Positions 9,264-63,695 of a stretch of 64,000 bases of DNA are shown here, piece by piece. Origin of the DNA: an archaeon (GTDB lineage Archaea; Nanobdellota; Nanobdellia; Pacearchaeales; GW2011-AR1); contig JABIDS010000009.1 of assembly GCA_018651605.1 (NCBI GenBank), forward strand, positions 84,563-148,562. Reading direction: 5' to 3'. Numbering within the stretch: the first letter of the stretch is position 1; every line of letters begins with the position of its first letter. A program made the translations under genes and the position numbers. The notes beneath the pieces are model-generated. The model saw nothing but the letters and a program-made list of their open reading frames with translations. It did no database searches and was not told where the DNA came from.

Positions 9264-9415
9264 TTTCTATCCCTGCGGAAAGCCGGTTTAGAGAATCTTC
9301 GATTCTCTAACTCTCTAACTCTCTTTGAGAGAGTTGGAGACTTCACACTTTCCCTTTCCTTCCCAGGTTTTGAAATCTTCTTAGGAATTTAATAGAGTAA
9401 GAGGTTTTCAGAGAA
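9264..9415 (+). repeat. mosaic intergenic repeat, module A copy with two nested hairpins
   Basis: ccctgcggaaagccgg...cacactttccctttccttcccaggttttgaaatcttcttagg aligns with 17715-17820. Extra hairpins lie at 9288-9310 and 9317-9335, inside the stem-1 loop. Confidence 0.8.
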
Positions 9416-9461
9416 TATTAAGTAAATAAAAGTTTATAAGGGACTAACTATCTGATAAATC

Positions 9462-9914
9462 ATGGAAGATTCACAAGAAAAATTAGATTTAATGATGAAA
9501 TGTTATTTAGGAAAATTTCATCCAGCTCTGGGTTGTGAACTTCAGATAAACTCATGGGGTTTTGGTAATAACATGCAAGGTTTGTTAAGTTGTTCTGAAA
9601 ATTATTTGTATCATCCTACTGAAACTATCTGGACGTTTAAAATGGGAAAATTTTATCAAAGGGCACAATCTGCATATGATTCTTTTCCATTTGATAAACT
9701 TGATCCTGAAGATAAGGATTTTAAAATTTTATTCGAGGTTAAAGATGAACTTCAGAAATTAGGTAATGCGTTAGAAACACTTATTGAGAGTACTGATCCC
9801 ACTTACTTCAGGGAAGTTAGTGCATTAATTAAAAATACAATAAGATTAGTTGAACCGGATTATAGGAATGCTGTAAAAGATTTGTGGTATAAATTAAATC
9901 AAAAACAATCTTAA
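9462..9914 (+). CDS. hypothetical protein (150 aa)
   Basis: ORF only, with A-ending codon style on the plus strand. Confidence 0.45.
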   Translation: MEDSQEKLDLMMKCYLGKFHPALGCELQINSWGFGNNMQGLLSCSENYLYHPTETIWTFKMGKFYQRAQSAYDSFPFDKLDPEDKDFKILFEVKDELQKLGNALETLIESTDPTYFREVSALIKNTIRLVEPDYRNAVKDLWYKLNQKQS

Positions 9915-9955
9915 TCAGATTAAACTTTTAAATTACTTATTTAAATTATAGGAGT

Positions 9956-11392
9956 TCAATAATTGTTAAGCTGAGTCGGTTGGACTTGTCCTCCGACGAG
10001 AGGGTTTATTTTTAAATTAGTAGTATTATCTATTAATTCTATAGCATTTTTTAATAAATTATTTGATGTTGTTTCATCTTTAGAATCTGCAATTATTCTT
10101 AGAACTTTGTCCTCTGTTTTAGATTGTCTAAACCAAATCCATGAATTATTTTTTATGAATTTTAATCCTCCGTTCTCACCTCCTGTTTGTTGAAGTTGGA
10201 AGCCTTTTGTTTGATAGTATTGAATTATATTTGGTGTAAGATTTTGAAAATCTGTTTTTAGTTTTATTTTTTCTTTGAGATAATAATATTTTGGTAGGTT
10301 GTTGATTAGTTTTTGGAGATTGGTTTGGTTTTGTGTTAGGATTTTTAGTAGGTAGAGGGTTGTTAGGATTCCATCTCGGCATTTTGAGTTTCCTAATATG
10401 ATTCCTCCGTTTGAGCCTTCTCCACCTAGAATTGAGTTTTGTCTTTGCATTTCGTTGATTATGTTTGTTTCTCCGACTTCGACTTCAATGAAGTTTGTGT
10501 TGTGTTTGTTTGCTATTTCTTTAACTAGATAACTTGTGGCATCGTTGACTATTATTGGTGGTTTGGAATCTGGGTTTGATGATGGGTTGGTTAGGAGATG
10601 ATTTGCGAATATGGCGAGAATTTGATTCCCATTGATTAGTTGTCCGTTTGGTAATAGAATTTCTACTCTGTCTGCATCGCAGTCAAATCCTATTGCGAAT
10701 TCTGTTTTTGTGTTGTTGAGTTGTTCTTTTAATGGTTTTAATGATTCTTGGTTTGGTTCTATTAATCTTGTGAATTTTCCATGGTTCATGTTGATGTAAG
10801 TTGCAGGTATTTGGAATTCATTGAAGATTTGTTTTGATGAGATTCCTGCACCTCCATTTGGGTCTACTAGGATTTCTATTCCTTGTAGGTTTATTTCTCC
10901 TATTATGTCTCTTAGGAAGCCAATGTAAGAACCTAGGGCGCTGTCTTGATAGTTTTCTATTGTTTGGTTGTCTAAATGAAGTGTTATTAGTTGTTGATCT
11001 TTTATTTGATTAAATGTTTGTATTACTTTTTCTATATCTTCTATGTTTAAGACTCCTCCGTCTTTTCCTAGGAATTTGAATCCATTGTATTCTGGTTCGT
11101 TGTGTGATGCAGTTATTATTATTCCTCCGTCGCAATTGAATGTTCTGACTGCGTTTTCTATTATGGGTGTTGAGGAGATTCCTAAGTCTAGGATTTCGCA
11201 GTTTAGGGTTTTGATTAGGGTGTTTAGAATTTCTTCACCTGATTCACGAGAGTCTCTGCCTATTGCTATTTTAGAATTGGGGTTTTGTTTTAGAAATGAT
11301 GTAAAATATGAATGAGCATATTTTTGAGCTATTTCGGGAGTCAAATCTTTTTTGTATACTCCTCTGATTCCTGAAAAGGATTGAATGAGCAT
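9956..11392 (-). CDS. phosphoglucomutase/phosphomannomutase family protein
   Basis: ITASHNEPEYNGFK (active-site Ser loop), GFDCDADR (Mg-binding loop) and GGEGSNGGII (sugar-binding loop). The last ~20 codons run through a repeat-derived hairpin. Confidence 0.85.
   Translation of the reverse strand: MLIQSFSGIRGVYKKDLTPEIAQKYAHSYFTSFLKQNPNSKIAIGRDSRESGEEILNTLIKTLNCEILDLGISSTPIIENAVRTFNCDGGIIITASHNEPEYNGFKFLGKDGGVLNIEDIEKVIQTFNQIKDQQLITLHLDNQTIENYQDSALGSYIGFLRDIIGEINLQGIEILVDPNGGAGISSKQIFNEFQIPATYINMNHGKFTRLIEPNQESLKPLKEQLNNTKTEFAIGFDCDADRVEILLPNGQLINGNQILAIFANHLLTNPSSNPDSKPPIIVNDATSYLVKEIANKHNTNFIEVEVGETNIINEMQRQNSILGGEGSNGGIILGNSKCRDGILTTLYLLKILTQNQTNLQKLINNLPKYYYLKEKIKLKTDFQNLTPNIIQYYQTKGFQLQQTGGENGGLKFIKNNSWIWFRQSKTEDKVLRIIADSKDETTSNNLLKNAIELIDNTTNLKINPLVGGQVQPTQLNNY
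9975..9997 (+). repeat. bulged-T hairpin module (repeat family fragment) inside the 3' end of the PGM ORF
   Basis: GTCGG-tt-GGA-cttg-TCC-t-CCGAC has the same architecture and inner stem-loop as 53294-53320 and 63610-63632. Confidence 0.7.
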
Positions 11393-16170: not shown

Positions 16171-16486
16171 GTTTCCTCCTCCAGCAGAGAGCCGGCTTAC
16201 GCCTTTCCCTCTCTGCCCGTTGCAGTTTTGGTAAGTTGTTAGAGGGTTTATTTTTTCAGATGAGTTTTCTTTGGTTGTTATGAGTGCGAAGTAGGTTTTG
16301 TAGAGAGTTTAAGATTTGGGTGATTCAGAGAATTAAAAATTCTCTGACTTAGAAAAATAAGCTATAAGCCCTATTATTTTTCTAATTTTAGTATTTAGCG
16401 AAGCACCCTGACGAAGTCGGGTGCGAAAGCGATATAGGATAAATGAGTAGAGCGAATGTATCTACACGAGCGGAGCGAGTGTTTAG
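16171..16486 (+). repeat. mosaic intergenic repeat, full-length copy (modules A + linker + B)
   Basis: Aligns by eye with 53125-53379, 58123-58415 and 63441-63695. Stem 1 is at 16184-16216, the nested palindrome at 16325-16347 and the bulged-T hairpin at 16403-16424. Confidence 0.85.
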
Positions 16487-17714: not shown

Positions 17715-17820
17715 CTTCCTCCTCCACGGAAAGCCGTGTTTCGCACTTTCCCTTTCCTTCCGAGGTTTTGAAATCTTCTTAGGGATTTAATTTATGGAGG
17801 GGAGTTTTCTTTTTTGTTGT
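17715..17820 (+). repeat. mosaic intergenic repeat, module A only
   Basis: cttcctcctccacggaaagccgtgtttcgcactttccctttccttccgaggttttgaaatcttcttaggg...ggagttttctttttt. Confidence 0.8.
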
Positions 17821-17846
17821 ATTTGGTTTATTAGATTTTAGAATTA

Positions 17847-23829: not shown

Positions 23830-23874
23830 TCAGAGAAATGGTGGCGGTTCTTGGTAGAAATGCTATTTCTCTGA
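23830..23874 (+). repeat. TCAGAGAA palindromic module (10-bp stem, 25-nt loop)
   Basis: tcagagaaat...atttctctga, with the flanking gatt shared with the 16325-16347 copy. Confidence 0.65.
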
Positions 23875-29721: not shown

Positions 29722-29770
29722 GGTTATCAAGGGTTTAGAAAGGGAAAAGTGGAAGTGCGAGTAAGCCTGG
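29722..29770 (-). repeat. mosaic repeat, truncated module A fragment in inverted orientation
   Basis: The reverse complement ccaggcttactcgcacttccacttttccctttctaaacccttgataacc parallels gccgtgtttcgcactttccctttcc...ttgaaatc. Confidence 0.6.
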
Positions 29771-29784: not shown

Positions 29785-32700
29785 TTATCTACGTTTTTTA
29801 GTGATTTTCCACATTTTCTTTTTTGAAATTATTTTAAATATTAGAATAATTAAAAGTATTATTATCGCTGTTATGCCTGGGGTCCATCTTGTTGGTTTAG
29901 AAGTTTTTTCTTCAGTTAATTTTTCAACTTCTTCTTCATATCCTACTATTGCAAAATAACTAAAGCCAGGGGTTATTGTTTCATAATATGCATAATCACT
30001 ATCTTTATTCAAAAAATTTGTTTCAAGTTTTTCCCACTCTGATGAATATCTTAGTATTTTAACTGATTCTGGTTTAAATTTTTCATCAAACCACGATGAT
30101 GAAATTTTGAATTCGATTATTGCTTTGCTTATTTCTTTGTTGTCAATATTTTTTGTGTTGATAATTAAGTATTGGTATATTTTTCCTTTTGGTTTTGGCA
30201 TATCTAATAAGTTATTTATTGAAGAAACCTCTATTCTACTATTAATTTTTGAATTCTTTAATTTTAAAGTAATTTTATTAATGGCAATTTTTTCTTTGTC
30301 AATATTTAGATCATATTTTTTATTTGCTTCCATTTTACTCCAAACATTAATTATTGTTTCAATTTTGTTTGACTGTGTTGTTGAGATGGATCCTCCTGAG
30401 CTCGAGGTTGTTGTTGGCGAGATACTTTGTTCAATATTAGAACCATAGTAAATTGTAACACTTTCAGATATTGTTGAATTGTCCTTTGTTTGAACATATA
30501 TTTCGCTTGTGTTCTCTGCTCTTATTTTTTTGCTTAGTCTATGTGATGCTCCAGTCCTAACTCTAAAAGTTCCGTGGTATTCGTTTGTGTTTATTCCTGT
30601 TTCGTATGCTTTTATTGGAACTGCAATTGAGGAATCTGTACTATTTATGAGTACGGTAATAATGTCTTTTATTCCTGGGTCTCCTCCTGTTGCAGCAATA
30701 TTAACATATAATGGATCATTAATATTAACATAAACTATTCCTGAATTGTCCGAACCTGTATAATCCGATTCATCAGTTATTTTTATTGTGGAGATTGTTT
30801 TTGCAACAAAATCTTCTCCTGTACCATAGATTAGATAGATTCTTCCAGCATCATTTGCCCCGTAGTCATTATTAGTTGAGTCAATAACAAAGTCTTCATA
30901 CCCATCATTATTAATATCTCCTAGGCCATCCATTTCATAGGCTCCATCATCCTCATATTCTCCAATCCATGAAGCATTTGCATTGCTTATACTTGTTCTC
31001 ATTGAAAGTCCTGTTGGGCTTCCATAAACTAATTGCACTTCTCCAACTGATCCTAAGTCTGGCCTATAATTACCCATAAATAAATCATCCCACCCATCAC
31101 CATTTACATCACCAATAAATGAGTTTGATGACAGAGAATCACCACTGCGTTCGCCATACCATGAAGCATTTGCCGAACTAACATTATAGTTTCCAGCGTA
31201 AGATATTGGACTGCCGAATATTAAATATGTTTGACCTGCTCCAGATGCACCATAATCATTACTGCCACTATAAAAAATAATGTCAGCAATCCCATCTCCA
31301 TTAATATCTCCTGAGGATGCACTCCTAGCCCAATCCCCATCTGCTTCACCATACCATGAAACACTAACATCACTAACATTTGTTCTCATAGAAAATCCAT
31401 TTGATGAACCATAAACTAGATATATTTGTCCAGAATCATAGATTCCCATTGGAGATGTGAGCAATAAATCATCGTATCCGTCGTTATTAATATCTCCTGC
31501 ATAACTTGTGCCATATCCCAACCAGTCAGAAGCTTTTGCGCCATACCAGGAGGCATTCACTTCACTTACATTATAGTTTCCAGCGTAAGATATTGGACTA
31601 CCTAATATTAAATATGTTTGACCTGCTGAGTCTCCACCATAATCATCTCTAAAATGGTCAATAACAAAGTCGTCATACCCATCTCCATTAAAATCTCCTA
31701 TTCCTTCTGCCAGTGTATTCTCACTACTTTCAATAGATTCACGACTCCAAGAGGCATTTGCAGTACTGACATTTATTCTTCCAGAAAATATAGTTTCTCT
31801 TCCGTATATTAAATTAGTTCTCCCTATCCCTTCTTTTGCTACTGATGTATATCCATATGAGGGAATTAATAGATCATCATAACCATCCCCATTTATATCC
31901 CCTGCATATGACGTGCCTCTTCCAAGATCATCTTTACGATAGGCACCATACCACGAAGCATTTGATTCATTTACATTCATTGTACCACTAAATGTGTTAG
32001 TATTCCCATAAAAGAGATATACACTTCCAGTGTCAGATCCTCCATAACTATTATCTTCAGAGTATAAAATAAAATCTGAGTAACCATCATTATTAATGTC
32101 TCCAACATAGCTCCCACCCTCTAAATTGTCTCCACTATTTTCTCCATACCAACTTGCATTTGCCCCACACAATAGAGACATTTCATCTTCAAAATCAGTC
32201 CTGCCCCCACAATAATATATGCTATAGTTTTCATCTCCAAAAGCACAATTCCCTCCAATATCGCAAAGATAATAATTCCAATAATTTTCTCCAAAAGAAC
32301 TAAGCTCTATAGTCATATTACTATTGTTTTTTGTTCCTGTAATTTCTGTTGTTGAGAAATTATATAGTCCTTCCCGATCCCAAACATAAAGAGTCGCATT
32401 CTTTAAGTCAATAGAGGTAAAAGGATTAGAACTTAAATTCGCAACGAAATATTGTGTAGCCTCATAAGTGTAATCTTCTCCATCTAGGGGAGATATTAGT
32501 TCTACCTCTAATTCATTTAATCTGTATATTGTAACATTTGTTTCTTGTGTTTGATTACTTTTGCTCATATTACTGGTTAGATTAACATAAGAATAAAAGT
32601 TAAAAGTATTAGAACCCGCTGTTGCATTTACCCAGAAGGTAACCACTTCACTTTCTCCTTCAGAAATTGAGATATTGTATGGATTAGTTGACATATTTGT

Positions 32701-40835: not shown

Positions 40836-40836
40836 T

Positions 40837-41016: not shown

Positions 41017-41069
41017 AATATATTGTAATGTATTAGATATAAAAGGATTTAGTTAGGGGATTAAGATAG

Positions 41070-41539: not shown

Positions 41540-41540
41540 T

Positions 41541-41729: not shown

Positions 41730-41774
41730 TTTCTTTAATTCCTAGTAAAAACTACAAAATCAAACTTTATTAAA

Positions 41775-42250: not shown

Positions 42251-42304
42251 TTTAATTAAGGATATTCTTCATTTATTAAATTAACTAAACAATTACTTAC
42301 TTGT

Positions 42305-42841
42305 TTAATCATAAAAAATTTCTTCAGGTTCATCGATTCTTTCTTGAATTAATTCTGCTAACCAATCTGCAGTTTCTTCTAAATTTTCAATTATAGAAAT
42401 ATTAGGTATTCTTTGAGTATGGTAGCCTTTTGATAATGAATAAATTGTTCTCTTCATATCTGCCAATGCCTGTCTAGAATTAGTATTATGGTGTCTGCCA
42501 TCTACTTCTATATTAAATTTAGCTTTTGGAATAGCAATATCAATAGTTTTATGTCCGTCCCATTTTTCTAATTCTGCAGGAATACCTCTTTTTATCAGTT
42601 CAAAATACAATGTTCTTGATTCACTGGTGGATTTTTTCAATTTCTTTTTACTTATATAATGAACTTCCTTATCATCATCTCTTTCATCATAATCATCTTC
42701 ATATTCTTCATCATAATCTTCTTGGCATCCCTCACATAATATCTTACCAAAATTTTCTTTTGAATCCTCCATAATACTTCTAGTTATTACTTCCTTACAT
42801 TCTGAACAATAATACTCATAATCCATGAAATAATTAAACAA
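42305..42841 (-). CDS. zinc-ribbon + DUF559/Vsr-like restriction-endonuclease-fold protein
   Basis: N-terminal CSEC...CEGC and an acidic linker. The C-terminal IDIAIPKAKFNIEVDGRHH resembles the DUF559 core (D...EVDG..H). Confidence 0.6.
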   Translation of the reverse strand: MFNYFMDYEYYCSECKEVITRSIMEDSKENFGKILCEGCQEDYDEEYEDDYDERDDDKEVHYISKKKLKKSTSESRTLYFELIKRGIPAELEKWDGHKTIDIAIPKAKFNIEVDGRHHNTNSRQALADMKRTIYSLSKGYHTQRIPNISIIENLEETADWLAELIQERIDEPEEIFYD

Positions 42842-42941
42842 TACCTAGTTAAATAATTTTCTAAATAATCATCTGATTATTTATTAGAAAAAACTTAAAT
42901 ATGCTTAAAATCTCTCTAAAATAAAGAAATGATTAAGGAAA

Positions 42942-43541
42942 ATGAAATTTCAAGAAAAATTATCCACTAAACAAATTCAATCAATTTTTTTAATTAGTGT
43001 TTCATTAATTTTATTTTATTCTTTAAGAAGTAAACCAGAACAGAGTGCAGAAATTCTTTTCTTGTTTATTTTTGTTATGTTTGGAGTTTCAATATTAAAT
43101 TTATTTCAAGAGAGCCATAAGAGATACAAAATATTAAGGTCTGAGACTATAGGAGATACGGGAGATTATGATAGCAAAGCAGAAAAAATAGTTGCAGATT
43201 ATTTCAAAGCAAAATCAATTAAATTTTATTTGCATCCTAAGGTTAAAGTTCCTAAAAAGATATGGATTTTTGACAATCCTTTTAGCAAGAGAGTATTAAA
43301 ACCTGATTTTTTCCTTCCTCAGTATAATGCGTTTGTAGAATATTGGGGTATGCTAGATGATGAAAATTACAAAAGAAAATCTGAATTAAAAAAGAAAGCA
43401 TACCGAGAAAATGATATTGATTTTATTTCCTTAACCCCAAGAGACTTAGAAGAAAGGCATAGGTTAGATTGGAATTTTACTCAGAAACTTCTTAGTTTAA
43501 TTAGAGACAGAGAAGGAAATGGATTGGAGTGGAGAAAATAA
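42942..43541 (+). CDS. membrane-anchored PD-(D/E)XK-like nuclease-fold protein
   Basis: Two N-terminal TM helices. KPDFFLPQYNAFVEYWGM matches the PDF...E-x-WG pattern seen in restriction-endonuclease-like domains. Confidence 0.5.
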   Translation: MKFQEKLSTKQIQSIFLISVSLILFYSLRSKPEQSAEILFLFIFVMFGVSILNLFQESHKRYKILRSETIGDTGDYDSKAEKIVADYFKAKSIKFYLHPKVKVPKKIWIFDNPFSKRVLKPDFFLPQYNAFVEYWGMLDDENYKRKSELKKKAYRENDIDFISLTPRDLEERHRLDWNFTQKLLSLIRDREGNGLEWRK

Positions 43542-43662
43542 GGGTTAGCCATTGGAAGCAAAACAATCACATGATTGTTTATTACACATAAACATCCTTA
43601 TGAAAATAACTACTTAAAATTAATTGTTTTAATCTTATTCTTTTGTTAATCTTTGCTAAATT

Positions 43663-44991
43663 TTATAACATTTTTATTTTTGAAATTAACAAATTTCGAA
43701 TATCTCCACCACTACAATAAACACTATTTGAACCCTTTCCTAGAAGAAATTCTTCTTCCCTAAGACCCAACGCCCTAAGAACTGCCATAAGTGATACTTC
43801 TGAAAATTTATATTTACTTTCACTTAAACATTTTTCATAATAAAATAAACTAATATTCGCCCCAATAATTTTGTTATCTTCTAAAACATATTCTTGATTA
43901 ATTGCAGGAGTTCCATCAAGCCAAAAATCCGTTTCATAAGAAAATGATTCTTTACTTATATTTTCATATTTTTTACAATAAAATTTAAGGTTTGAGGATT
44001 CCTTATCGCCTTCATAAATTAATAATTCTTTTAACGCATTTATTTCGATTTCTTTTATGGCATTTTTGATGTTATCAGTAGCATAATCTTCACAACCCAA
44101 TATTGAGTAAGTTACTGGATAATTATTCCATAAATAATTTTTCTTTTCTAAAATTTCTTCCTCTTTTTTTAATTCTACTTCATATTCTAAATCATACGGA
44201 TATATATTCAAGTTTGAACAATCTCCTTTAATTTCTCCATTAGAGTAGATGTGCTTTAAACAATTTATTGTATCTGCATCTATCTCTTTTATTTTACAAG
44301 TTTGAATAGAAATTTTTAAAGGGAACATTATCTGATTAGGAGTATCATAAACATGTCTAAATCCGAAGGTATGCAATATTTCATGAATTTCTGTCTGTGG
44401 AAAATCAAGACATTTTCCATTATAACTTCCCAGATAATTTGAAAAGAAAATTACTTCCCCAGTATTTATTTTATTTTTGTTAAAATCAGTAATTCCTCCG
44501 ACTCCTAAGACTTCCCATCCATCATAATTTTGATAAGTCCCATTAGAATCATAAAGTCCTTGAATTTTAAGTTTAGGATTTTCAGTTTCACTAACTTCCT
44601 TGAAGGTAATTAATCCTTCAGTTTCTTCTTCAATAATATTTAGTGCCTCTTTAATTCTTTTAACTTGCTTATTTCTAGAAATTCCATCCCTATACCAACT
44701 TTGACTTGATTCAGAATAGATGCCTAATGATGAGATATTTAAACTATAAGTTATAGGCATTTCTCTCCAATGCATTTCATTAACTTTTGAAAATGAATCA
44801 TTAATCAAATAATTTTTATTTTCTTTATCATAATCCTCATACGAATATTTCTTAGGAGTTTCTTCCAGATTTATTTTTGATGAATAAAAAAAAGCCAAAA
44901 CTAAAAAAATCATAAATACTAAAATAATTAAGAAATTTTTAAAACTATCTCTCTTTACATTTTTCCCCATTTTATTTTTTTCCCAATTCAT
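43663..44991 (-). CDS. secreted/anchored metzincin zinc metalloprotease (matrixin-like)
   Basis: HEILHTFGFRH (HExxHxxGxxH) plus the Met-turn QIMFP. N-terminal TM helix. Paralogous motif block to 33969-35024. Confidence 0.8.
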   Translation of the reverse strand: MNWEKNKMGKNVKRDSFKNFLIILVFMIFLVLAFFYSSKINLEETPKKYSYEDYDKENKNYLINDSFSKVNEMHWREMPITYSLNISSLGIYSESSQSWYRDGISRNKQVKRIKEALNIIEEETEGLITFKEVSETENPKLKIQGLYDSNGTYQNYDGWEVLGVGGITDFNKNKINTGEVIFFSNYLGSYNGKCLDFPQTEIHEILHTFGFRHVYDTPNQIMFPLKISIQTCKIKEIDADTINCLKHIYSNGEIKGDCSNLNIYPYDLEYEVELKKEEEILEKKNYLWNNYPVTYSILGCEDYATDNIKNAIKEIEINALKELLIYEGDKESSNLKFYCKKYENISKESFSYETDFWLDGTPAINQEYVLEDNKIIGANISLFYYEKCLSESKYKFSEVSLMAVLRALGLREEEFLLGKGSNSVYCSGGDIRNLLISKIKML

Positions 44992-45178
44992 TCATTAATT
45001 ACATTATATATTATAAAAATAGAGAGAGTGAGTATTTATTAAATTAACCCTTAGAAGTCCAAACAATCACCTGATTGTTTATTGTGAAGATTTGGATGGT
45101 TTTTAGAAGTAGAAATGAGTGATTTTAGGAGGTAGATTATTTAGTAAAGTTTTTATATCATATTTTATTAAATAATCT

Positions 45179-45346
45179 ATGAAATATAAGGGATTAATGG
45201 GATTAGTTATGATTATAATTGGAATTACCATAGTTTTAAAATTCCCCACATCAATGAATGGTTTTGGTATACTAATAGGTATGGGGCTTATTGTTATTGG
45301 AGGCCCTCTTACATTAACAAGCTTTATGAAATTTGTTACCAAATAA
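45179..45346 (+). CDS. possible small membrane protein (55 aa)
   Basis: Hand-translated MKYKGLMGLVMIIIGITIVLKFPTSMNGFGILIGMGLIVIGGPLTLTSFMKFVTK. More protein-like than the antisense 85-aa track ORF. Confidence 0.35.
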   Translation: MKYKGLMGLVMIIIGITIVLKFPTSMNGFGILIGMGLIVIGGPLTLTSFMKFVTK

Positions 45347-45381
45347 CTCATTTTCCCCATCTTTGATAATATCCACTCTTT

Positions 45382-45606
45382 CTAAATATTCATAAACCTC
45401 TCAACCGCTTCTTTTGCCCTTTTTGAAGATATCTTAAATCTTTTCATTAATAATTTGTAAGTGTTAGAATTTATCTTCTCTTCTACATATAATGGAACTA
45501 AAAAATCCCAAAAGTTTCCAAAGTGTGGGGAATCGCAGGGTTCTATTAATTCAGCATTTACTATTTGTCTTGTTTCAGGAGACCATACTTTTATTTTTTT
45601 TACCAT
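45382..45606 (-). CDS. hypothetical protein (74 aa, island)
   Basis: ORF abutting the upstream gene. Confidence 0.45.
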   Translation of the reverse strand: MVKKIKVWSPETRQIVNAELIEPCDSPHFGNFWDFLVPLYVEEKINSNTYKLLMKRFKISSKRAKEAVERFMNI

Positions 45607-46116
45607 CTACCCTTCCTTCCAAAACCAATATTTTCTTAGGTTGTGGTGATTTGAAATTCGCGCCCGTAATCCCTCTGAATGTTCAGTAATAATTATATCT
45701 GCCTTTTTACAAAAACTACAATGAAATTTATTTTTTCTTGCAGTCGGCATTCTCATTTGAAAATGGCCTTGGTATGCAATCAAATTAATAGCAAGTTCTC
45801 CAATCTTCTTACAAGTGCTTAAATCTTCTGGATTAACAATTGCAAGAGAAGGCTTATCTGCTTGAGAGTCAAGAATAACAACCCGAAAACATTTTTTATT
45901 ATGTCTTAATCTGAGGTGTTTTGGAATCCTCATATAACTATCATGAGGCAAATCACAAACCTCATGAAACTGAACTTTTAAAGGGTCATTCTTATCTCTT
46001 TTAGAAACATAAGGGATGAAGTTCCCATGCTTATTCATACGCTTTTTCTTAACAGGTTTTCCTGCATAAGTCTTTGGTTTCTTATGAGTTCCACCTTTAT
46101 CTGACCTAGTTTTCAT
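45607..46116 (-). CDS. hypothetical basic protein (169 aa, island)
   Basis: ORF with a K/R-rich N-terminus and His/Cys-containing core. No family recognised. Confidence 0.5.
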   Translation of the reverse strand: MKTRSDKGGTHKKPKTYAGKPVKKKRMNKHGNFIPYVSKRDKNDPLKVQFHEVCDLPHDSYMRIPKHLRLRHNKKCFRVVILDSQADKPSLAIVNPEDLSTCKKIGELAINLIAYQGHFQMRMPTARKNKFHCSFCKKADIIITEHSEGLRARISNHHNLRKYWFWKEG

Positions 46117-46206
46117 ATCAATTTCTCGGAATTCCTAATAAAATTCCGAACCCCCTTATAAATAATTCCGAACCCCATAATTAACATTTTACCGTCTATA
46201 AACATC

Positions 46207-46530
46207 CTAAAAATCCTCCTGAAGCTCATCTTTCATACCTATTCCGAATTCCGAATTTGCACATGTGTCCCCATAAGAGAATAAGATTAATCTATTGAGA
46301 TTAGTCTTTATCCTCGCTATTTTATTTAATCTTGGGAGCATTAAGATTGATTTATGTGGGTTTTTTCTCTCAGACCGCTGGGAATCCTTTAATGTGAGTG
46401 TACACATATTTGAGGTTTTTTTATTACCTATTGGTCTTATATGAACTTTTTCCATTTCTTCAGAAATTTGATTTTTAGTAATCCCAAACTTCCCTACCCT
46501 AGTGCAATTGAACTTTTTATTAATACTCAT
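46207..46530 (-). CDS. hypothetical protein (107 aa, island)
   Basis: ORF only. Confidence 0.45.
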   Translation of the reverse strand: MSINKKFNCTRVGKFGITKNQISEEMEKVHIRPIGNKKTSNMCTLTLKDSQRSERKNPHKSILMLPRLNKIARIKTNLNRLILFSYGDTCANSEFGIGMKDELQEDF

Positions 46531-46657
46531 TTTTATTTTAAAGTATCACTCCTTAATTTATTTTTCGTATATCTTGCCTCATATTTAAGTTTAGTTTTTG
46601 TTTCTCTTTCTCTTTCCAATTTATTTTCTTTTGTTGTTGTCATTTTATTTTAAAAGA

Positions 46658-46672
46658 AGGGGCAATGCCCCT
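46658..46672 (-). terminator. GC-rich hairpin followed by T-run on the minus strand
   Basis: aggggc-aat-gcccct is the only GC-rich hairpin in this AT-rich spacer. On the minus strand it is followed by tctttt, downstream of the putative Rep operon. Confidence 0.3.
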
Positions 46673-46730
46673 CCAATTCTCGCAGGCAACTAATAAACCA
46701 ATTGGTAATTTAATTCGCGAGTATATTTGT

Positions 46731-46853
46731 TCATTCTAAATCATCTCCAATGAGGTGCTCATCCATTTTATTTGAACATTCCTTACAGAGTTCTGAAATA
46801 TATTCTGTCTTCTCTTTCAAACATCCATTACATTTTATTTTATTTTTTTTCAT
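46731..46853 (-). CDS. possible zinc-ribbon peptide (40 aa)
   Basis: Hand-translated MKKNKIKCNGCLKEKTEYISELCKECSNKMDEHLIGDDLE (CxxC...CxxC). Its start overlaps the upstream stop. Confidence 0.35.
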   Translation of the reverse strand: MKKNKIKCNGCLKEKTEYISELCKECSNKMDEHLIGDDLE

Positions 46854-47008
46854 TATATTTCTCCAAATTCTTTTAATAATCTCCTTTGTTGATTTAGTTC
46901 TAGGGTTTCTTTTTCTTTTTCTGAATAATCTTCAGGATAGTTTTTCCTTCTGCGTTTTGAATCCAAAAGCATGGACTCAAGTATTTTGTTGTCAGTTTGC
47001 TCGGTCAT
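46853..47008 (-). CDS. possible small protein (51 aa)
   Basis: Hand-translated MTEQTDNKILESMLLDSKRRRKNYPEDYSEKEKETLELNQQRRLLKEFGEI. Confidence 0.3.
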   Translation of the reverse strand: MTEQTDNKILESMLLDSKRRRKNYPEDYSEKEKETLELNQQRRLLKEFGEI

Positions 47009-47057
47009 TTTTGGTTACCATCACCCCTAGGATTTAGTAGCCTCTTTTAATCACCTC

Positions 47058-49187
47058 TTATATTTTTGCTTCTTTCAATTCATTTATTAATTTTATTTTA
47101 TTATCTTGAAGAAGAATTTGAGACATCTCTTTTCCTAAATCTCCTAAATCTTCAATAGAATATTCCTTATCGGGTTCAAGAGTAATTTTTATCTCTTGCC
47201 CTTTTTTATATCCTGCGATGTTTAAGGATTCTAGAGGTGTAAACTTGCCTACTCCACCCTCCAAACCAAGTGTCAAAGTGTCAGAAGTGTCAGATTTACG
47301 CTTAATTTTCTTATTTTTTTTTTCAAGTGTCAGATTACTTACTGACACCTTCTTATTAAGTGTCAAGTAAGTGTCAGTATACCATTTATTTATTTTATCG
47401 TCGTTATACTTACACCCTGACACCTCTGACACTATTTTTAATATATTCTCTTTAACTACAAACCCTTGTCTTAATAAAATCTCTATGACCTTATAAAAAT
47501 CCAATCGATATCCCCTTTGATTTCCAGTAGGGTTTTCTCTAAAATCAGTAAATCCAAGACTGCTTAATATCATACCAATTTTAGTGTTTGAAATATCATA
47601 ATGTCTAGGACTTTGCTCATCTAGTTCACTAGTAAATTGATTTTTTATGAATTCTACAGATAAAAACTTTTCAACTTCATGTTGACTAAACAATTTAATT
47701 ACCGTTTGAGCCATTATCATCTCCCAACTTTGTTCATCAAAATTAAAATCTCTTATCTCAAATAATCTAACTAAAAAAGAACCTATTTTCTTTTCTAAGT
47801 TCTTATTAATACAACTAGCTAATGCAATCAATGGCTTTGCCAATACCCATTGTCTATTCGCTAATCCATAATCATTTTTAATATTTTTTAGTGAATCTTC
47901 ATATTTTTTATAATTCAATAAACCACAAATATAAATTTTATTTCTTATAGAGCAATATTTAGAATCATCTTCAGGAGGAGGTTCAATATTTCCTCTTAAA
48001 TCTCCTTTTGGTGCTTTAATCATATGCAATGCCACGCTTCTTTGTCCCAAAGCTCCTCTTAGAGGTTTTATAGAACCTATTGCAGAATCCCCTGCAGGGT
48101 CAAATTCATCTGTTTGATTTATATTTTTATCATTTTGTCTAGGAACAGTATTCCCTTTTTCATAACTTCCATTAAGATATTCAACAAGTTCAGAATCCCC
48201 TGTAGTCTTCTTTTTAGAATCATCAAAAAGTCTTTCCATTTCTTCCATAAATAATGTAGCTTTGTTATGATGTCTGTATCTGAAAAAATTTGCAGGAGTG
48301 GGGCATAAGAATTTTTTCCCATTAAAAGAAAGATTTGCTCCAATTCTCATTCCTTTAGATTTTGCAACTCCTGAAATACCTTCATGTTTAATAATTAAGA
48401 ATTTGTCATTTAAATCCCAGAAATAAGTTTTTAAATCTCTTAATGGAAGAAGAAAATACCACATATCATTTTCAAAAACCATCCCCTCATCATAGAATTT
48501 TTTAACGTCATTAAACACTTTTTCAAAGGTGTAGTCTTTTTTATTTAAATTACCCTCGCAAAAAAATTTAATAGAATTCAAACTCCACCTATTTCTTTTT
48601 AAGGTCATAATAGAATCAAAAACAAAGTTAACATCCTCAGGCTTATTATTTTCAGTAATTATTTTTCCATTTTCAAGAACAATCCCTGGAGATAATTCAG
48701 TAGTTTGTATTAATTTGCCTCTCTGCTTTTTTAAAATTAATTCATTAACCTTAATTCCATAATATCTATAGTTCTTATTTTTTATTTTTATCTTACCAAC
48801 TGCGTGGTCAAGAACCTGAGGTAATTCTGAATCATCTAAGATAAATTTATTTAAATCTTTATTAAACTCTTCTTTTTCTTTTCCCTCTAATCTTTCTTTC
48901 AAATCTTCATTATATTCATCTACAAATCTATCCGCATTTTCTTGACTTACCCTCATATAAACACAACTCTTCTCATTAGTTTTCAGCATCTTTTTATCTT
49001 GGAAAGCAACTTCTTTATTGTCTGGGTCTTCTCTAGGCAATTGTTTTAAGTGTTTTGTTAGAGTTTCCTTATCACTCAACCATTTCGCATATTTTTCTTT
49101 CTTAACTTGTTCTTCATCTGTTAAGTATTCTTTAAATTCAACCCTCTCAACATTTTCTTTAGTTGTCATTTTCAACACCTTTTTCAT
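47058..49187 (-). CDS. large island protein (709 aa), candidate replication protein
   Basis: Largest island ORF, heading an operon behind RHH/HTH genes. Degenerate P-loop-like GISGVAKSKG is followed ~43 aa later by LFMEEME (SF3-helicase-like spacing). An iteron array lies inside its 3' part. Function is inferred only. Confidence 0.6.
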   Translation of the reverse strand: MKKVLKMTTKENVERVEFKEYLTDEEQVKKEKYAKWLSDKETLTKHLKQLPREDPDNKEVAFQDKKMLKTNEKSCVYMRVSQENADRFVDEYNEDLKERLEGKEKEEFNKDLNKFILDDSELPQVLDHAVGKIKIKNKNYRYYGIKVNELILKKQRGKLIQTTELSPGIVLENGKIITENNKPEDVNFVFDSIMTLKRNRWSLNSIKFFCEGNLNKKDYTFEKVFNDVKKFYDEGMVFENDMWYFLLPLRDLKTYFWDLNDKFLIIKHEGISGVAKSKGMRIGANLSFNGKKFLCPTPANFFRYRHHNKATLFMEEMERLFDDSKKKTTGDSELVEYLNGSYEKGNTVPRQNDKNINQTDEFDPAGDSAIGSIKPLRGALGQRSVALHMIKAPKGDLRGNIEPPPEDDSKYCSIRNKIYICGLLNYKKYEDSLKNIKNDYGLANRQWVLAKPLIALASCINKNLEKKIGSFLVRLFEIRDFNFDEQSWEMIMAQTVIKLFSQHEVEKFLSVEFIKNQFTSELDEQSPRHYDISNTKIGMILSSLGFTDFRENPTGNQRGYRLDFYKVIEILLRQGFVVKENILKIVSEVSGCKYNDDKINKWYTDTYLTLNKKVSVSNLTLEKKNKKIKRKSDTSDTLTLGLEGGVGKFTPLESLNIAGYKKGQEIKITLEPDKEYSIEDLGDLGKEMSQILLQDNKIKLINELKEAKI
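47269..47432. repeat. iteron-like array: 10 copies of GTGTCA(G)/CTGACAC
   Basis: Direct copies start at 47269, 47277, 47286, 47326, 47359 and 47370. Inverted copies lie at 47342-47348, 47417-47423 and 47426-47432. A perfect inverted repeat, gtgtcag-8nt-ctgacac, spans 47327-47348. Confidence 0.8.
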
Positions 49188-49494
49188 CTTCTGATGATTT
49201 GTTTATTCTATTAAAATTATCAATATTTTCAAAACACAATGTTAATTTAACAGGATTTATACTCCAACCTTCTGCGATTTGATAGATAAGTTTTGCAGTT
49301 TTTGGTAAGTCATATCCTACCAAAATTTGTCTTACTCTTCCTTGAGAAATTCCTGCCTTTATTCCTGCTTCCTTATAATCTCGAAATCTTAACCTCAGGT
49401 ATGTTTTCAAATCATTTGCGTTTAAATCATCATTAAGTAGGTATTTATTAGAGATGATATTGTTAATATTTGGGTTTGATTGTGAATTTTTCAT
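49159..49494 (-). CDS. HTH DNA-binding protein (111 aa)
   Basis: YKEAGIKAGISQGRVRQILVGY shows the helix-turn-helix pattern. Confidence 0.55.
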   Translation of the reverse strand: MKNSQSNPNINNIISNKYLLNDDLNANDLKTYLRLRFRDYKEAGIKAGISQGRVRQILVGYDLPKTAKLIYQIAEGWSINPVKLTLCFENIDNFNRINKSSEDEKGVENDN

Positions 49495-49495
49495 C

Positions 49496-49651
49496 TTAAA
49501 CGGCCTTGATTGCAGAATTTAATTTCTGATTTTCTCTTAAGATTTTATTTAAAGGGATTTCAATATCATTCTCAATTATAAAAGTTAATTTTGGAAATCT
49601 CTCTCGAAATTCATCGTTAATAAAAGGTTTTTTATTTGATTCAAATTGCAT
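49496..49651 (-). CDS. possible small protein (51 aa)
   Basis: Hand-translated MQFESNKKPFINDEFRERFPKLTFIIENDIEIPLNKILRENQKLNSAIKAV. Packed between two genes with overlapping or abutting codons. Confidence 0.35.
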   Translation of the reverse strand: MQFESNKKPFINDEFRERFPKLTFIIENDIEIPLNKILRENQKLNSAIKAV

Positions 49652-49790
49652 TTTGTTTTTCCTGAATTTTTTGTAACACTAAAAATCTAATAAAAGAGGA
49701 TGTTGATAATCCAGAATCCTCTGCAATTTTTAATATTCTTTTTTTATTTTTATCGTCTATAAAAAATGTTATTGATTTTCCTTTTTCCAT
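49641..49790 (-). CDS. ribbon-helix-helix protein (49 aa)
   Basis: Hand-translated MEKGKSITFFIDDKNKKRILKIAEDSGLSTSSFIRFLVLQKIQEKQNAI is a classic RHH. First gene of the minus-strand operon. Confidence 0.55.
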   Translation of the reverse strand: MEKGKSITFFIDDKNKKRILKIAEDSGLSTSSFIRFLVLQKIQEKQNAI

Positions 49791-49929
49791 TTTACTAATA
49801 ACCTATGGTATTTTATAGTACTTTAAGGTAGATATGGTTTATAAACATTTCTATCATATAGTTTTATAGTTTACCATAATGTTTATATATTGATTTAGAC
49901 TTCTAATTTAAATATTATCCAAAAACAAG

Positions 49930-50532
49930 ATGGTTCAAAAACAAATTAACTCAAATGAAGAAGGTGTAAAGAATCTTTTTTTTGACAAAGAAACTCTTGA
50001 AAATGATTTTGAAGGTCTGATGACTTCTCTAACAGATATTGAACAAGGAGTAATAAAGATTTTATATGAGAAAAAACACGCTATGACAATGAGTAAAATA
50101 AGAGGTCTTTTAGTTGATGCTTATTTTCATTACTTAATAGAATTTTATGAAGAAAATACTAAAAAAAAGATTAACAACTTGGCTGAAAAGTCTATTAAAT
50201 GGAGACCTAATTTAGAATTAACATTTTTACAGGCAGAAAAGGTCATGCAAGGAATTACTAAAAAGATGAAAGAAAGGGGTGATAAAGCATTGTATGAGAG
50301 CCAGAGACTAAAAGAAATCAATGATGTTATGATTAATAATGGAATTATACTTCCTTCTAGGAATCTTGTTAATTCCTCCTTGATTAATCTAAAAAGAATG
50401 GGCTTAGTTTCTTTTAGATATGTTATTCCAACCAATTCTCTTAATAAGGAGGATTTTAATAAAAAAGATAGATATCAAAGAGAAATATGGTTCTTAAATC
50501 CTAAATTTTATACTTTTCTAAAAAAGTTATAA
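49930..50532 (+). CDS. hypothetical protein with wHTH-like segments (200 aa)
   Basis: IEQGVIKILYEKKHAMTMSKIRGLL and SSLINLKRMGLVSFRY resemble winged-helix recognition regions. Confidence 0.5.
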   Translation: MVQKQINSNEEGVKNLFFDKETLENDFEGLMTSLTDIEQGVIKILYEKKHAMTMSKIRGLLVDAYFHYLIEFYEENTKKKINNLAEKSIKWRPNLELTFLQAEKVMQGITKKMKERGDKALYESQRLKEINDVMINNGIILPSRNLVNSSLINLKRMGLVSFRYVIPTNSLNKEDFNKKDRYQREIWFLNPKFYTFLKKL

Positions 50533-53124: not shown

Positions 53125-53379
53125 TTTCCGCCCCTGCGAAAAGCCGGTTTCACCTTTTCCTTTTCGCGCCTTTGCAGTCTTGAAATTTTGTTAGAGGGTT
53201 ACTTTTTGCAGATGAGAAGATTAGGTTTTGTCATGAATGCTAAAAATGTTTTTCATAGCTTCTGATATTTAGAAGATTTCAAAAAAATTAGAAATTTGGG
53301 TTGGACTTGTCCTCCCAAATTGATATAAAATAAGATGAGCGGAGCGAATGAATCTACGCGAGCGATAGCAAGCATTTAG
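53125..53379 (+). repeat. mosaic intergenic repeat, full-length copy
   Basis: Stem 1 at 53136-53167 (gcgaaaag/cttttcgc); bulged-T hairpin at 53294-53320; 3' block gatataaaataagatgagcggagcgaatgaatctacgcgagcgatagcaagcatttag. Confidence 0.85.
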
Positions 53380-56271: not shown

Positions 56272-56280
56272 AAGATTGGT

Positions 56281-56425
56281 TCGCTTTCGCTCACAACTTA
56301 TTTTATGTCAAAGTGCCTGACTTTGTCAAGGCACTTTTCTAATTTTCTTGATATCTGTTAAAATTTAATATTTTATGGAGATTAGTTTTCTTTTTGATTG
56401 TTGTTATGGTTTGTGGTTTTAAGTG
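56281..56425. repeat. rearranged mosaic repeat copy (module B hairpin inverted, module A tail forward)
   Basis: 56281-56340 is the reverse complement of hairpin-GCGAaAGCGA..ATAAAATAAG..GAGCGAA. It is followed by the forward agttttctttttgattgttgttatgg. Confidence 0.65.
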
Positions 56426-58103: not shown

Positions 58104-58122
58104 AGGTTTGGTTGATTGAGGG

Positions 58123-58415
58123 GTTTCCGCCACCGCGAAAATCCGTTCCTTACGTCACTTTCCCATTTTCTTACCGAGTCTTGAAATGTTGAGGAAGGGT
58201 TTATTTTTGAAGATGAGTTTTCTTTTGATTGTTATGAGAACTTAGTTTTTTACGAGTGATTAAGATTTAGGAGATTTCAGTATTTAGCGAAGCGGACTGG
58301 CGCAAGCCGTCCGCGAGAGCGATATAGAATAAGATGAGCGGAGCGAATGAAACTTGTGGAAGAGGGATATAAGCGAACGAAGTGAGTTATCTACGCGAGC
58401 GAAGCGAGCGTTTAG
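58123..58415 (+). repeat. mosaic intergenic repeat, full-length copy (with a 37-nt insertion in module B)
   Basis: Bulged-T hairpin with a GCAA loop at 58292-58314. The segment acttgtggaagagggatataagcgaacgaagtgagtt is inserted between gagcgaatgaa and atctacgcgagcg. Confidence 0.85.
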
Positions 58416-61327: not shown

Positions 61328-61390
61328 CTTTTACCTAAAAAACAAAAATTAATTTATAAACATTATAGCAATGAAAGATATACATTAGGT

Positions 61391-63175
61391 TTATTTGATG
61401 TATCCGCCTTTTTGGAGGTTCCAGAGTTTTTTGTATTCTCCTTTTTGTTGGATTAGTTCTGAATGTTTTCCCATTTGGATTATTCTACCTTTTTTTAAGA
61501 CGATGATTCTATCTGCGTTCATGATTGTTGAAAGTCTGTGTGCGATTATTACAGATGTTCTGCCTTTTAGTAATTTTTGAAGGTCTTTTTGGATTTCATT
61601 TTCTGTTTCTGAATCTAATGCAGATGTGGCTTCATCTAGAACTAATATTTTTTTGTTTGCTAAGATTGCTCTTGCTATTGAAACTCTTTGTTTTTCTCCT
61701 CCTGAAAGTTTGACTCCTCTTTCTCCTACAATTGTGTTTTCTTTGTCTTGAAAGTTTTCTATTACCTTATCTAATTGTGCAAATTTTATTGCTGATAAAA
61801 CTTGTTTTCTTGTTGCTTTTGGATTTGAGAACTTTATGTTGTTGTATATTGTGTCGTCGAATAAAACGCATTCTTGAGGAACAATTCCTGTTTCACTTCT
61901 AATTGATTCTTGTTTGAATTCTCGGATATCTTTGTTGTCAATTAAAATACTTCCTTGATTGACGTCATAAAACCTGTTTAATAGTTTTACTAGTGTTGTT
62001 TTTCCGCAACCAGAATGTCCTACAAATGCGACTTTTTCGTTTTCATTTATTTTTAGATTGAAATCTTGGAGGAATTTTCTACGCCCATAATTGAAATTTA
62101 CATTTTTGAATTCAATTGTTCCTTTTGATATCTTTAAGTTTGGTGCGTTGTTTTTGTCTTTTATTTCATTTTCAAATCTATTGTATTCAAATAATTCTTG
62201 GAAGTCTGCCATTGAACGATAAAATCCTCTTAATCCGTGGACAAATCCGAATATGTATACTAGGAGTCCTGCGAATGTTGTGTAAATGAATGTTAATGTT
62301 CCTAGGCTTATTTGTCCATTTAAGAATTTTACTAGAGAGAAGTAAAGTAAGACAAATGTTCCTGTTCCTAAGATTAGGGATTGTCCTGCGCTCATCCATC
62401 GGAAGTAGTCCCAGTTTTTTAGGTAAAAGGCTCGTGTTGTGTCTGATAGTTTGACGAATTTGTCTTCTACTACTTTTTCTTTTCCGTAGTATTTTACAGA
62501 GTCTATGTTTGTAAAAATATCTGCGACGTTTCCTTTTTCAACATCTTCTGCTTTGTTTGCTTCTATGTTTGATTTTTCTTGGAGTCTTTGCAAGATAAAA
62601 CTGTAACTAATGAAAATTATTACGGTGATTAACATAATCATTGCTGAAAATGTTTCTAGGTAGATTAAGGAGAAGAAAACTAATGTTAGTTGTAAGATTA
62701 GAGTTATGAAATTGAATGAGATTATGTCTGTCATTCTTTCTACTGCTCCTGCGCCTCTGCCGATTCTGGAAATTAAGCTTCCTGTTTTGTGTGTTGTGTG
62801 GAAGTTGTGGTCTAATTTTAATATATGGTTGAAGAATTTTCTTTTTAAATCTGTGATGACATTATTTTCAAGTCTGTTTAGGAAATGAATTCTTAACCAA
62901 TTTGAAATTGATGTTAGGATGAAGAAGGTGATGAAAACTGCTCCAACAATTATTAAGATGTTTGTGAAGGCTGTTCTGGTTAATATTCCTGTGTTGAAAT
63001 CTGTTCCATTGTCAATTATTACTTTGAATAAAAATTTGTCTACAATGACTCTTATTTCTTTTATTAATACGAAAAGCACGACTAGGAACATTAGTAATTT
63101 GTATTTTTTTAAAAGATTCCAATATATTCTGAAGTTGTATTTGAAGTCTATTTCTTTTGATGATTTTGTTCTCAT
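61391..63175 (-). CDS. ABC transporter, fused permease/ATPase (MsbA/multidrug-exporter type)
   Basis: Six TM helices at the N-terminus; GHSGCGKTT, LSGGEKQRVSIARA, ILVLDEATSALD. Confidence 0.9.
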   Translation of the reverse strand: MRTKSSKEIDFKYNFRIYWNLLKKYKLLMFLVVLFVLIKEIRVIVDKFLFKVIIDNGTDFNTGILTRTAFTNILIIVGAVFITFFILTSISNWLRIHFLNRLENNVITDLKRKFFNHILKLDHNFHTTHKTGSLISRIGRGAGAVERMTDIISFNFITLILQLTLVFFSLIYLETFSAMIMLITVIIFISYSFILQRLQEKSNIEANKAEDVEKGNVADIFTNIDSVKYYGKEKVVEDKFVKLSDTTRAFYLKNWDYFRWMSAGQSLILGTGTFVLLYFSLVKFLNGQISLGTLTFIYTTFAGLLVYIFGFVHGLRGFYRSMADFQELFEYNRFENEIKDKNNAPNLKISKGTIEFKNVNFNYGRRKFLQDFNLKINENEKVAFVGHSGCGKTTLVKLLNRFYDVNQGSILIDNKDIREFKQESIRSETGIVPQECVLFDDTIYNNIKFSNPKATRKQVLSAIKFAQLDKVIENFQDKENTIVGERGVKLSGGEKQRVSIARAILANKKILVLDEATSALDSETENEIQKDLQKLLKGRTSVIIAHRLSTIMNADRIIVLKKGRIIQMGKHSELIQQKGEYKKLWNLQKGGYIK

Positions 63176-63440
63176 TTTGGTCTCTTACTTTTTTAAAGTA
63201 GTTAATTTTTTGGGATGGGTTTAAATATTAGATTGTCTCGTGGTTTTTATGTTATATTCAGATAATGAATCTTTGGATAAGATGTTTGAAAAGGGTGATG
63301 ATGGTGATGCGGATGATGAAGATGAGGTGGATGGGGATAGTTAGGGGATGAGGGATTGGAGTGATTCTTAATAGAAAGTTGATATGTGATTTAAAGTTTT
63401 CGGTTTGATTTCAAGAGGCTCGGTTTAAGGGGGTTTGGAT

Positions 63441-63695
63441 TTTCCTCCACCGCAGAAAGCCGTGCTCGCACTTTCCCTTTCTGCCCTTAGTAATCTTGAA
63501 ATCTTGTTAGAGAGTTATTTTATTCAGAGGAGTTTTCTTTTGGTTGTTATGAGGGTTAAAAAGTTTTGTATAAATATTAAGACTTAGAAGATTTCAGTAT
63601 TTTAGTGAAGCAGACTGGACTTGTCCGTCTGCGAGAACGACATAAAATAAGTGAGTGGAGCGAATGAATCTACGCGAGCGATAGCGAGTGTTGAG
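63441..63695 (+). repeat. mosaic intergenic repeat, full-length copy
   Basis: Stem 1 at 63452-63484 (gcagaaag/ctttctgc); bulged-T hairpin with a CTTG loop at 63610-63632. Confidence 0.85.

Follow-up and report, generated by a model that had tools for sequence, protein, structure and literature searches.

A strand-polar family of mosaic hairpin repeats in the gene spacers of three related DPANN archaea

The gene spacers of three related small-genome DPANN archaea contain a dispersed family of non-coding repeats, 100-330 bases long, with conserved hairpin modules. The family is described here on the basis of a 64,000-nt stretch of one of these genomes (contig JABIDS010000009.1; hereafter the window, to which all coordinates refer unless another contig is named), of which it occupies ~2.4 %. 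Its unusual points are a clean strand polarity and well-supported hairpins. The explanation favoured here, with a probability of roughly one half, is that of a non-autonomous REP/BIME- or PATE-like mosaic repeat that would spread via single-stranded DNA at the replication fork. The species of the window is called species A; species B is a relative with a UvrD 83 % identical to that of the window (contigs L014 and L068), and species C is the GTDB genome 'Ca. Woesearchaeota archaeon SRP104257_co1_44' (including contigs L025, L028 and L040).

An earlier reading of the window, the original prediction, had proposed a composite element of the form module A, linker and module B, present in four full copies on the + strand. 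This build is borne out: the four copies align end to end with 63-73 % pairwise identity, they were recovered independently by a repeat search of the window, and they are supported by a covariance model. They are located at 16172-16486 (module A 16172-16287 and module B 16391-16486), 53125-53379, 58124-58415 and 63441-63695, with sharp boundaries at TTTCC on the 5' side and at GTTTAG on the 3' side. Run with its filters off, the covariance model detected six module-A copies in the window, all of them on the + strand and scoring 75-128 bits, and the next-best module-A match reached 16 bits (E 0.36). Moreover, a 21-base motif of module B has 3 matches in the window and 0 in 100 shuffles. The predicted copies that carry only module A were also confirmed, their limits now being 9264-9427 and 17715-17828 (both +). 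The copies are non-coding, as had been proposed, because the indels among them are not multiples of three and an internal ATG is gone in one copy, and a coding role was ruled out on these grounds. Their gene context is mixed, with convergent, tandem and divergent spacers all in use, again in agreement with the first description.

Each copy has features of its own. The copy at 16172 starts 35 nt 3' of the stop codon of a co-oriented GTPase gene, and its linker holds two extra hairpins at 16324-16346 (TCAGAGAATT..AATTCTCTGA) and 16350-16386. The copy at 53125 is flanked by two minus-strand genes, and its module-B hairpin (HpB) belongs to type B2 (lower stem long, A/U). The copy at 58124 lies between the convergent MscS and UvrD genes and has a weakened stem in the module-A hairpin (HpA); it also bears a 40-nt insertion (~58351-58390) which is a partial duplication of the neighbouring module-B segment GATATA..AGCGAA..GTGAG. 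The copy at 63441 is taken as the reference. Its HpA is formed by stem 1 (63452-63459 with 63477-63484) and stem 2 (63462-63464 with 63469-63471), and further downstream it presents HpB (63610-63632), the conserved purine motif GAGTGGAGCGAA (63653-63664) and a 3' hairpin (63672-63691). Regarding the copies with module A only, the one at 17715 begins 20 nt 3' of the stop of a gene with its own orientation and reaches up to the end of the DEAD helicase gene, which is convergent, and the one at 9264 is a long form, with two extra hairpins (~9287-9340) in the loop of HpA stem 2.

The alignment of copies from the three species revealed a common order of parts: a C-rich leader, HpA, a variable linker, HpB and a conserved purine tract, to which a 3' hairpin tail is added in species A and B. 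The 5' end of the unit is sharp, TTTCC(G/T)CC(A/T)CC; in species C, which lacks the tail, the element stops immediately past GAGCGGAGCGAAYGTA. HpA begins 12 nt from the 5' end, HpB is placed 45-95 nt from the 3' end, and the tail hairpin of species A and B, which is small and covarying (ACRC..GYGT), stands 4 nt from the end. At the level of primary sequence, the family is most conserved in the purine tract downstream of HpB, GAYATAGAATAAG-TGAGCGGAGCGAA.

HpA and HpB are maintained by compensatory changes. HpA is bipartite: between stem 1, of 8 bp, and stem 2, of 3-4 bp, lies an internal loop that is asymmetric and conserved (GCCG opposite C(U)UUUCC). Stem 1 occurs in several variants, each accompanied by its complement (GCAGAAAG, GCAGAGAG, GCGAAAAG, GCGGAAAG and ACAAAAAG), and stem 2 occurs as GGC/GCC, GUG/CAC, GGU/ACC or CGU/ACG. 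In 19 copies aligned to the model, 93 % of the cells are paired versus at most 61 % with slid partners, and 22 cells show double changes, the observed values being reached in 0/500 shuffles; this alignment was fitted to the model and thus leans towards structure, and a separate test used 8 copies. However, the raw sequences show the stems directly, and G-U pairs but no A-C pairs occur. HpB is likewise bipartite, with a 6-8-bp stem, a GGAC/GUCC apex and usually a bulged U, and about nine sequences of its lower stem were found. The loop of HpA stem 2 takes up one, two or nested extra hairpins in the copy at 9264 and in three copies of species C, and the first hairpin inserted there is related across species and has compensatory changes of its own.

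Beyond the individual hairpins, a fold of the whole unit is poorly defined. The long-range helices proposed by RNAalifold for the full length are weak or shift register between copies, and the full-length minimum free energy is marginally better than that of shuffles (z = -1.7). A global fold in which the 5' C-rich leader would pair with GAGCGGAG was rejected, as the register shifts between copies and no compensatory change is seen. A C/D box, a K-turn or a hammerhead around AGATGAG were discarded as well (the consensus positions are unmet and Rfam is silent), and so was an RNase P-like GGAAAGCCG, whose sole match is noise on the wrong strand. With respect to the ends, terminal inverted repeats are absent, since the 5' TTTCCNCCNCC and the 3' ..GCGAGCGTTTAG (..GAGCGGAGCGAAYGTA in species C) are not reverse complements, and no direct repeat that would mark a target duplication was found in the flanks of 19 copies.

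The covariance model gave 21 matches on 8 contigs across the three species, and all of them are on the G-rich strand of their contig (8/8 contigs; p ~0.004 if orientation were unrelated to skew). The single orientation on the G+T-rich strand that had been predicted for the window is therefore extended well beyond it, and module A was never inverted in a significant match. The GC skew is +0.17 in the window, +0.29 in L025, +0.28 in L028, +0.05 in L053, +0.19 in L037, +0.46 in L040 and +0.34 in L047; in L014 (-0.13) and L068 (-0.08) the skew is negative and the copies are on the minus strand. Orientation follows the strand and not the genes, because the DEAD-PPIase block is on the C-rich strand in species A and B, with the nearby species B copies (L068) antisense to it, whereas in species C (L040, skew +0.46) the same block is on the G-rich strand and the copies are sense. 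The + strand of the window is G- and T-rich regardless of gene orientation: genes on the + strand have a skew of +0.46 and those on the - strand one of -0.04, and the intergenic DNA stands at +0.10. These values imply a coding-strand bias of about 0.25, to which a strand bias of about +0.2 is added. The two tRNA genes of the window share the strand of the copies. As a separate observation, G+T-rich low-complexity tracts (GGTTGTGGTGG, GGGTTTGG) occur in the spacers of the window, L014 and L068, always on the strand of the repeats.

Concerning the distribution of the family, the module-A pattern has 42 matches in 185,579 GTDB genomes; six of these, on five contigs, belong to one metagenome-assembled genome, that of species C, and the remaining ones are single chance hits in unrelated organisms. 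Species C has 11 model matches in ~39 kb, and five of them are on one 10.6-kb contig, which is denser than the window. In species B a full copy stands by UvrD, in the position of the window copy at 58124, and it is 82 % identical to the window copy at 63441 versus 74 % to its positional counterpart. The copy after the GTPase stop codon is common to species A and C, and some HpA sequence subtypes are common to different species. Between species A and C, HpA is ~94 % identical and the proteins are 50-84 % identical.

Close relatives gave a different picture. By nhmmer with three profiles and by the covariance model, no copies were found in L017 (UvrD 68 % identical, 22 kb syntenic), in L021 (GCA_964494375.1, 20 kb syntenic) or in L067 (DEAD helicase 85 % identical, 11 kb), and these three contigs have no comparable repeats of their own either. 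In L021 the GTPase and HAD genes overlap at the site of the copy at 16172, and 52 nt separate S10 from PGM (L021:4564-4617), where the window has a segment of ~800 nt formed by the module A at 9264, an open reading frame (ORF) of 150 aa and an HpB hairpin. L017 has no spacer at the place of the copy at 58124. The copies are thus lineage-specific insertions with a patchy distribution among close relatives.

The family is also a mosaic, as shown by copies with module A only, by chimeras of an inverted module B and the 3' part of module A, and by small hairpins that, in two species, are nested inside the loop of HpA. A rearranged copy had been reported at 56281-56425; it is real and consists of a minus-strand module B (56274-56369; nhmmer E 2.6e-5 to 1e-8), truncated after GCGAA and situated directly 3' of the thermosome stop codon, joined to a plus-strand 3' fragment of module A (56371-56412, TTTATGGAGATTAGTTTTCTTTTTGATTGTTGTTATGG) whose score was equalled in 1/300 shuffles. 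Such chimeras are present at three loci in all, since L068 of species B carries two of them in addition to one more copy with module A only. At L068:230-340 and L068:5040-5140, an inverted HpB (flanks GCGAAGC/GCGAAAGC) is followed by the 3' half of module A in the same build as window 56274-56412, and in one of the two an additional hairpin is nested in the HpB loop.

The family has apparently not been described before, and the comparisons made support this part of the original prediction within Rfam 15 and the phage and plasmid collections. Rfam 15 returned two tRNAs and nothing else from the window at gathering thresholds, and permissive scans of three copies gave 9-18 bits at best (E at least 0.4). 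No match to the family was obtained by blastn in the phage and plasmid collections. The module-B pattern had 0 matches in viral contigs and 10 matches in JGI metagenome contigs, all of them due to chance, and its strict form had 0 matches in GTDB genomes, which shows that this collection lacks species A. Among the titles and abstracts surfaced by literature searches, none described dispersed repeats in DPANN archaea. Overall, the scan beyond the window yielded further copies in two more species with a non-random orientation, and the family is wider and more modular than first described, with part of its minor fragments wrongly assigned (see below).

In the favoured explanation, the hairpins would be recognised by a strand-specific enzyme encoded elsewhere and acting in trans, most likely a Y1/HUH-type transposase. 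Because such an enzyme would be strand-specific, copies would be inserted in one orientation relative to replication. Afterwards they would stay in the spacers, decay to forms with module A only and be hit by smaller hairpin elements, and they could serve as recombination substrates, by which modules would be shuffled and accessory genes brought in. The pattern seen at the DNA level, that is, lineage-specific insertion, patchiness, decay, shuffled and inverted modules, nested hairpins and accessory genes, is what favours this explanation and, together with the likeness to PATEs and IS200/IS605 elements, it argues for a hairpin-recognising, strand-specific enzyme provided in trans.

The lagging-strand template has the leading-strand sequence, which is G-rich in most bacteria, and the same is assumed here for these archaea. 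IS200/IS605 elements move as a single strand, and their insertion takes place in the lagging-strand template (PMC5027513). If skew marks the replication strand, the uniform replication-relative orientation of their ends is found in the present family too; however, the 5' target and the mutually similar subterminal hairpins of IS200/IS605 ends are not. The PATEs of Haloquadratum walsbyi, which derive from IS200/IS605, are heterogeneous, lack inverted terminal repeats and target duplication, have near-terminal palindromes and receive insertions of smaller repeats in those palindromes (PMC3119063). The family resembles them in being non-coding, a few hundred bases long or shorter, archaeal and heterogeneous among copies, in having neither terminal inverted repeats nor target duplication, and in the hairpins near both ends with smaller repeats inserted in the palindromes. 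It differs in that its two hairpins are dissimilar, the left flank has no target oligonucleotide, HpB is at some distance from the 3' end, no sequence similarity to any known element is seen, and no IS605-type parent element, TnpA or TnpB was found in the partial contigs of the three species.

The REP/BIME sequences associated with RAYT (TnpA-REP) in proteobacteria (PMC3333891) are similar in their intergenic position, their mosaic of hairpin modules and linkers, the conserved short sequence 5' of an imperfect palindrome, the presence of modules in both orientations and the lack of an internal transposase. Nevertheless, module A has ~115 nt versus 20-40 nt for a REP and units here reach 100-330 nt, there is no GTAG-type 5' tetranucleotide, no RAYT was seen, the host is an archaeon, and the main module keeps a strict single orientation instead of forming inverted pairs. 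The BOX elements of Streptococcus pneumoniae are modular (boxA-boxB-boxC) and intergenic, with a predicted stable fold and no mobilising enzyme known. They recall the A-linker-B build with its variable middle in the spacers, but there is no sequence relation, they belong to another domain of life and no replication-strand polarity has been reported for them. MITEs share with the family the short, non-coding, dispersed and lineage-specific character and the partial copies; however, the copies here are far more divergent than those of MITE bursts, and a strict MITE is unsupported because the family has no terminal inverted repeats or target-site duplications. Hence, of the mobile repeats first suggested, the MITE is set aside, and REP/BIME-like behaviour gains support. 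The family cannot be counted among the PATEs or REPs; it belongs to the small dispersed hairpin repeats in general and matches no defined family.

Several data weigh against spreading by a strand-specific enzyme. No Y1/HUH (Y1_Tnp), TnpB/OrfB, RAYT or other transposase domain was found in the scanned ORFs and gene lists, which together amount to some 100 kb for species A, 40 kb for species B and 39 kb for species C; a weak Phage_integrase match past the end of the window is the sole hint. A conserved target of 4-5 nt 5' of the left end was not found either, the last 4 nt of 19 left flanks being all different, a negative that would fall if the conserved TTTCC were the target. HpA is unlike HpB in both sequence and form, and the end hairpins of IS200/IS605 elements are usually alike. 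The copies are old (55-82 % identical, with no near-identical pairs) and show no presence/absence polymorphism within a species (L001-L003). In addition, the use of GC skew as a marker of the replication strand is assumed for these archaea, and the conservation of HpA between species, higher than that of many proteins, could equally reflect a host function.

The main rival explanation is a multicopy structured RNA, which is considerably less probable than the mobile repeat. The copies would be small RNA genes or 3'-UTR or spacer elements transcribed in the direction of replication, and the folded + transcript, with HpA, HpB and the purine tract with its repeated AGCGA, would bind a protein or another RNA. 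Selection for co-directional transcription, as for tRNA and rRNA genes, would then be the source of the uniform orientation, and it fits that the window tRNA genes share the strand of the copies. An RNA would also account for the strong stem covariation with conserved loop and internal-loop sequences, the occurrence of G-U but not A-C pairs, the expansion of stem 2 to variable length at a fixed point, as happens in many structured RNAs, and the conservation of HpA between species A and C beyond that of their proteins. Moreover, the copies have 40 % GC versus 30 % in the intergenic background, and for about half of them the stop codon of a gene in the same orientation lies 6-95 nt before the start. 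However, no Rfam family matches, a consistent long-range fold is missing, with closing helices that are weak or shift register, the full-length free energy is marginal versus shuffles, and there is no promoter box at a constant upstream distance. T-runs like those of archaeal terminators were considered and are not enriched after the 3' end (5/9 vs background 0.32, p = 0.12). The existence of module B inverted and fused to half of module A also speaks against an RNA, and syntenic sites of close relatives without copies would be unexpected for an RNA that is needed. The mobile repeat and the structured RNA are not mutually exclusive, because many repeat elements are transcribed. If the copies are RNAs, they would form a new abundant class of archaeal RNA with well-defined covarying hairpins.

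An unlikely but broader proposal is that the elements are not junk and would make up a new functional system in DPANN archaea: their folded single strand, either RNA or DNA and conserved in shape, would be read by a dedicated protein. It could consist of dispersed, integron-like hairpin recombination sites that capture accessory genes (e.g., toxin-antitoxin pairs) in many spacers of the chromosome, or of a new multicopy class of structured RNA whose repeated AGCGA tract titrates or guides a protein.

Accessory genes do appear next to the copies. Species C has a HepT/MNT toxin-antitoxin pair and, in addition, a second nucleotidyltransferase gene directly beside or between copies (L025:3065-3992 and L028:2119-3152), and at the places of these insertions the window has just a copy or a short spacer. 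L028 has the order copy, nucleotidyltransferase, copy; in L040 an ORF is enclosed by two copies, and a 41-nt spacer takes its place in the window. In species B (L014:4017-4733), the MscS stop and the full copy are separated by an extra A-only copy and an orphan ORF of 183 aa, an interval that corresponds to window 58104-58123, so that the order is A, 183-aa ORF and A+B instead of the single A+B of the window. The layout of L014 is as expected from a circle carrying one module A integrated into a resident copy. In species A, the 150-aa orphan ORF (9462-9914) follows the module A at 9264 and precedes the isolated HpB-type hairpin at 9975-9997. The 150-aa and 183-aa ORFs were considered as transposases and rejected, as neither has a Pfam or PADLOC match or paralogues.

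These arrangements recall dispersed att-like recombination sites, for which the folded hairpins would serve, comparable to the attC sites of integrons, an idea that is improbable. A site-specific recombinase would capture circular DNA with accessory genes, and a circle with one copy entering a resident copy would leave its cargo flanked by two direct copies. Cargo bracketed by direct copies is what L014, L028 and L040 present, and the window has a module A, the 150-aa ORF and an HpB hairpin. The bulged base, the structure kept while the sequence varies, the single-strand hairpins with extrahelical bases and the accessory genes in one orientation also resemble attC, and a 411-aa gene with a weak Phage_integrase match lies ~5.5-6.7 kb past the window end, near the contig end, according to the gene list. 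Nonetheless, most copies are free of cargo and stand between housekeeping genes, there is no cassette array, no integrase adjoins any copy, and attC-like R/L core sites are absent. Ordinary homologous recombination between dispersed repeats yields the same pattern, and the skew-linked uniform orientation is left unexplained. The remaining explanation, a polar cis-acting DNA element of the host for replication or chromosome organisation, read by a DNA-tracking or fork-associated protein, is very improbable: it would agree with the strict G-rich-strand polarity on 8/8 contigs and the conserved sequence blocks, but known polar motifs are short oligomers and not 100-330-nt mosaics, close relatives are without the family, and the copies decay and rearrange.

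DPANN genomes are very small and streamlined, and the link between copies and accessory genes suggests how reduced genomes may still gain genes. The strict polarity offers a ready marker of the direction of replication in uncultured archaea whose origins are unmapped. Furthermore, if the single-strand mechanism of the mobile repeat is true, this lineage would possess an unrecognised strand-specific transposase or recombinase.

The minor fragments of the window complete the set. The isolated hairpin at 9975-9997 (+; GTCGG-TT-GGAC TT GTCC-T-CCGAC) proved to be of HpB type, its apex TGGACTTGTCC being exact in this hairpin and in two full copies (3 matches vs 0.64 expected). The inverted module-A fragment proposed at 29722-29770 (-), which adjoins tRNA-Asp, shows a real similarity to HpA (0/300 shuffles), although the degenerate part spans only ~36 nt and the covariance model missed it. 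A predicted module hairpin at 23830-23874 is not module B; it is a free-standing AGAGAA..TTCTCT hairpin (23832-23872), and its type is that of the small hairpins found inside the copies at 9264 and 16172. The short echo reported at 35648-35670 is at chance level (82/300 shuffles score as high).

The window is gene-dense and archaeal, with 32 % GC, and encodes a thermosome, TBP and other archaeal-type proteins; its UvrD-like helicase is 100 % identical to a protein with the label '[archaeon]', and relatives of this helicase are labelled Pacearchaeota or Nanoarchaeota. Three other features of it can be mentioned. A minus-strand ORF at 29785-33729 encodes a 1314-aa surface-type protein with FG-GAP/GEVED domains and seven internal repeats of ~195 nt (30883-32175). 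A low-complexity tandem array with a 9-18-nt period, TTCTTC-rich on the + strand, is located at 35038-35307, just downstream of the gene of an M10/CARDB protease and ahead of tRNA-Tyr. After this tRNA gene (35746-35818) starts a block (~35750-50000) with 27-29 % GC, reversed skew, orphan ORFs and DUF559 and Exo_endo_phos genes, which may be an integrated island.

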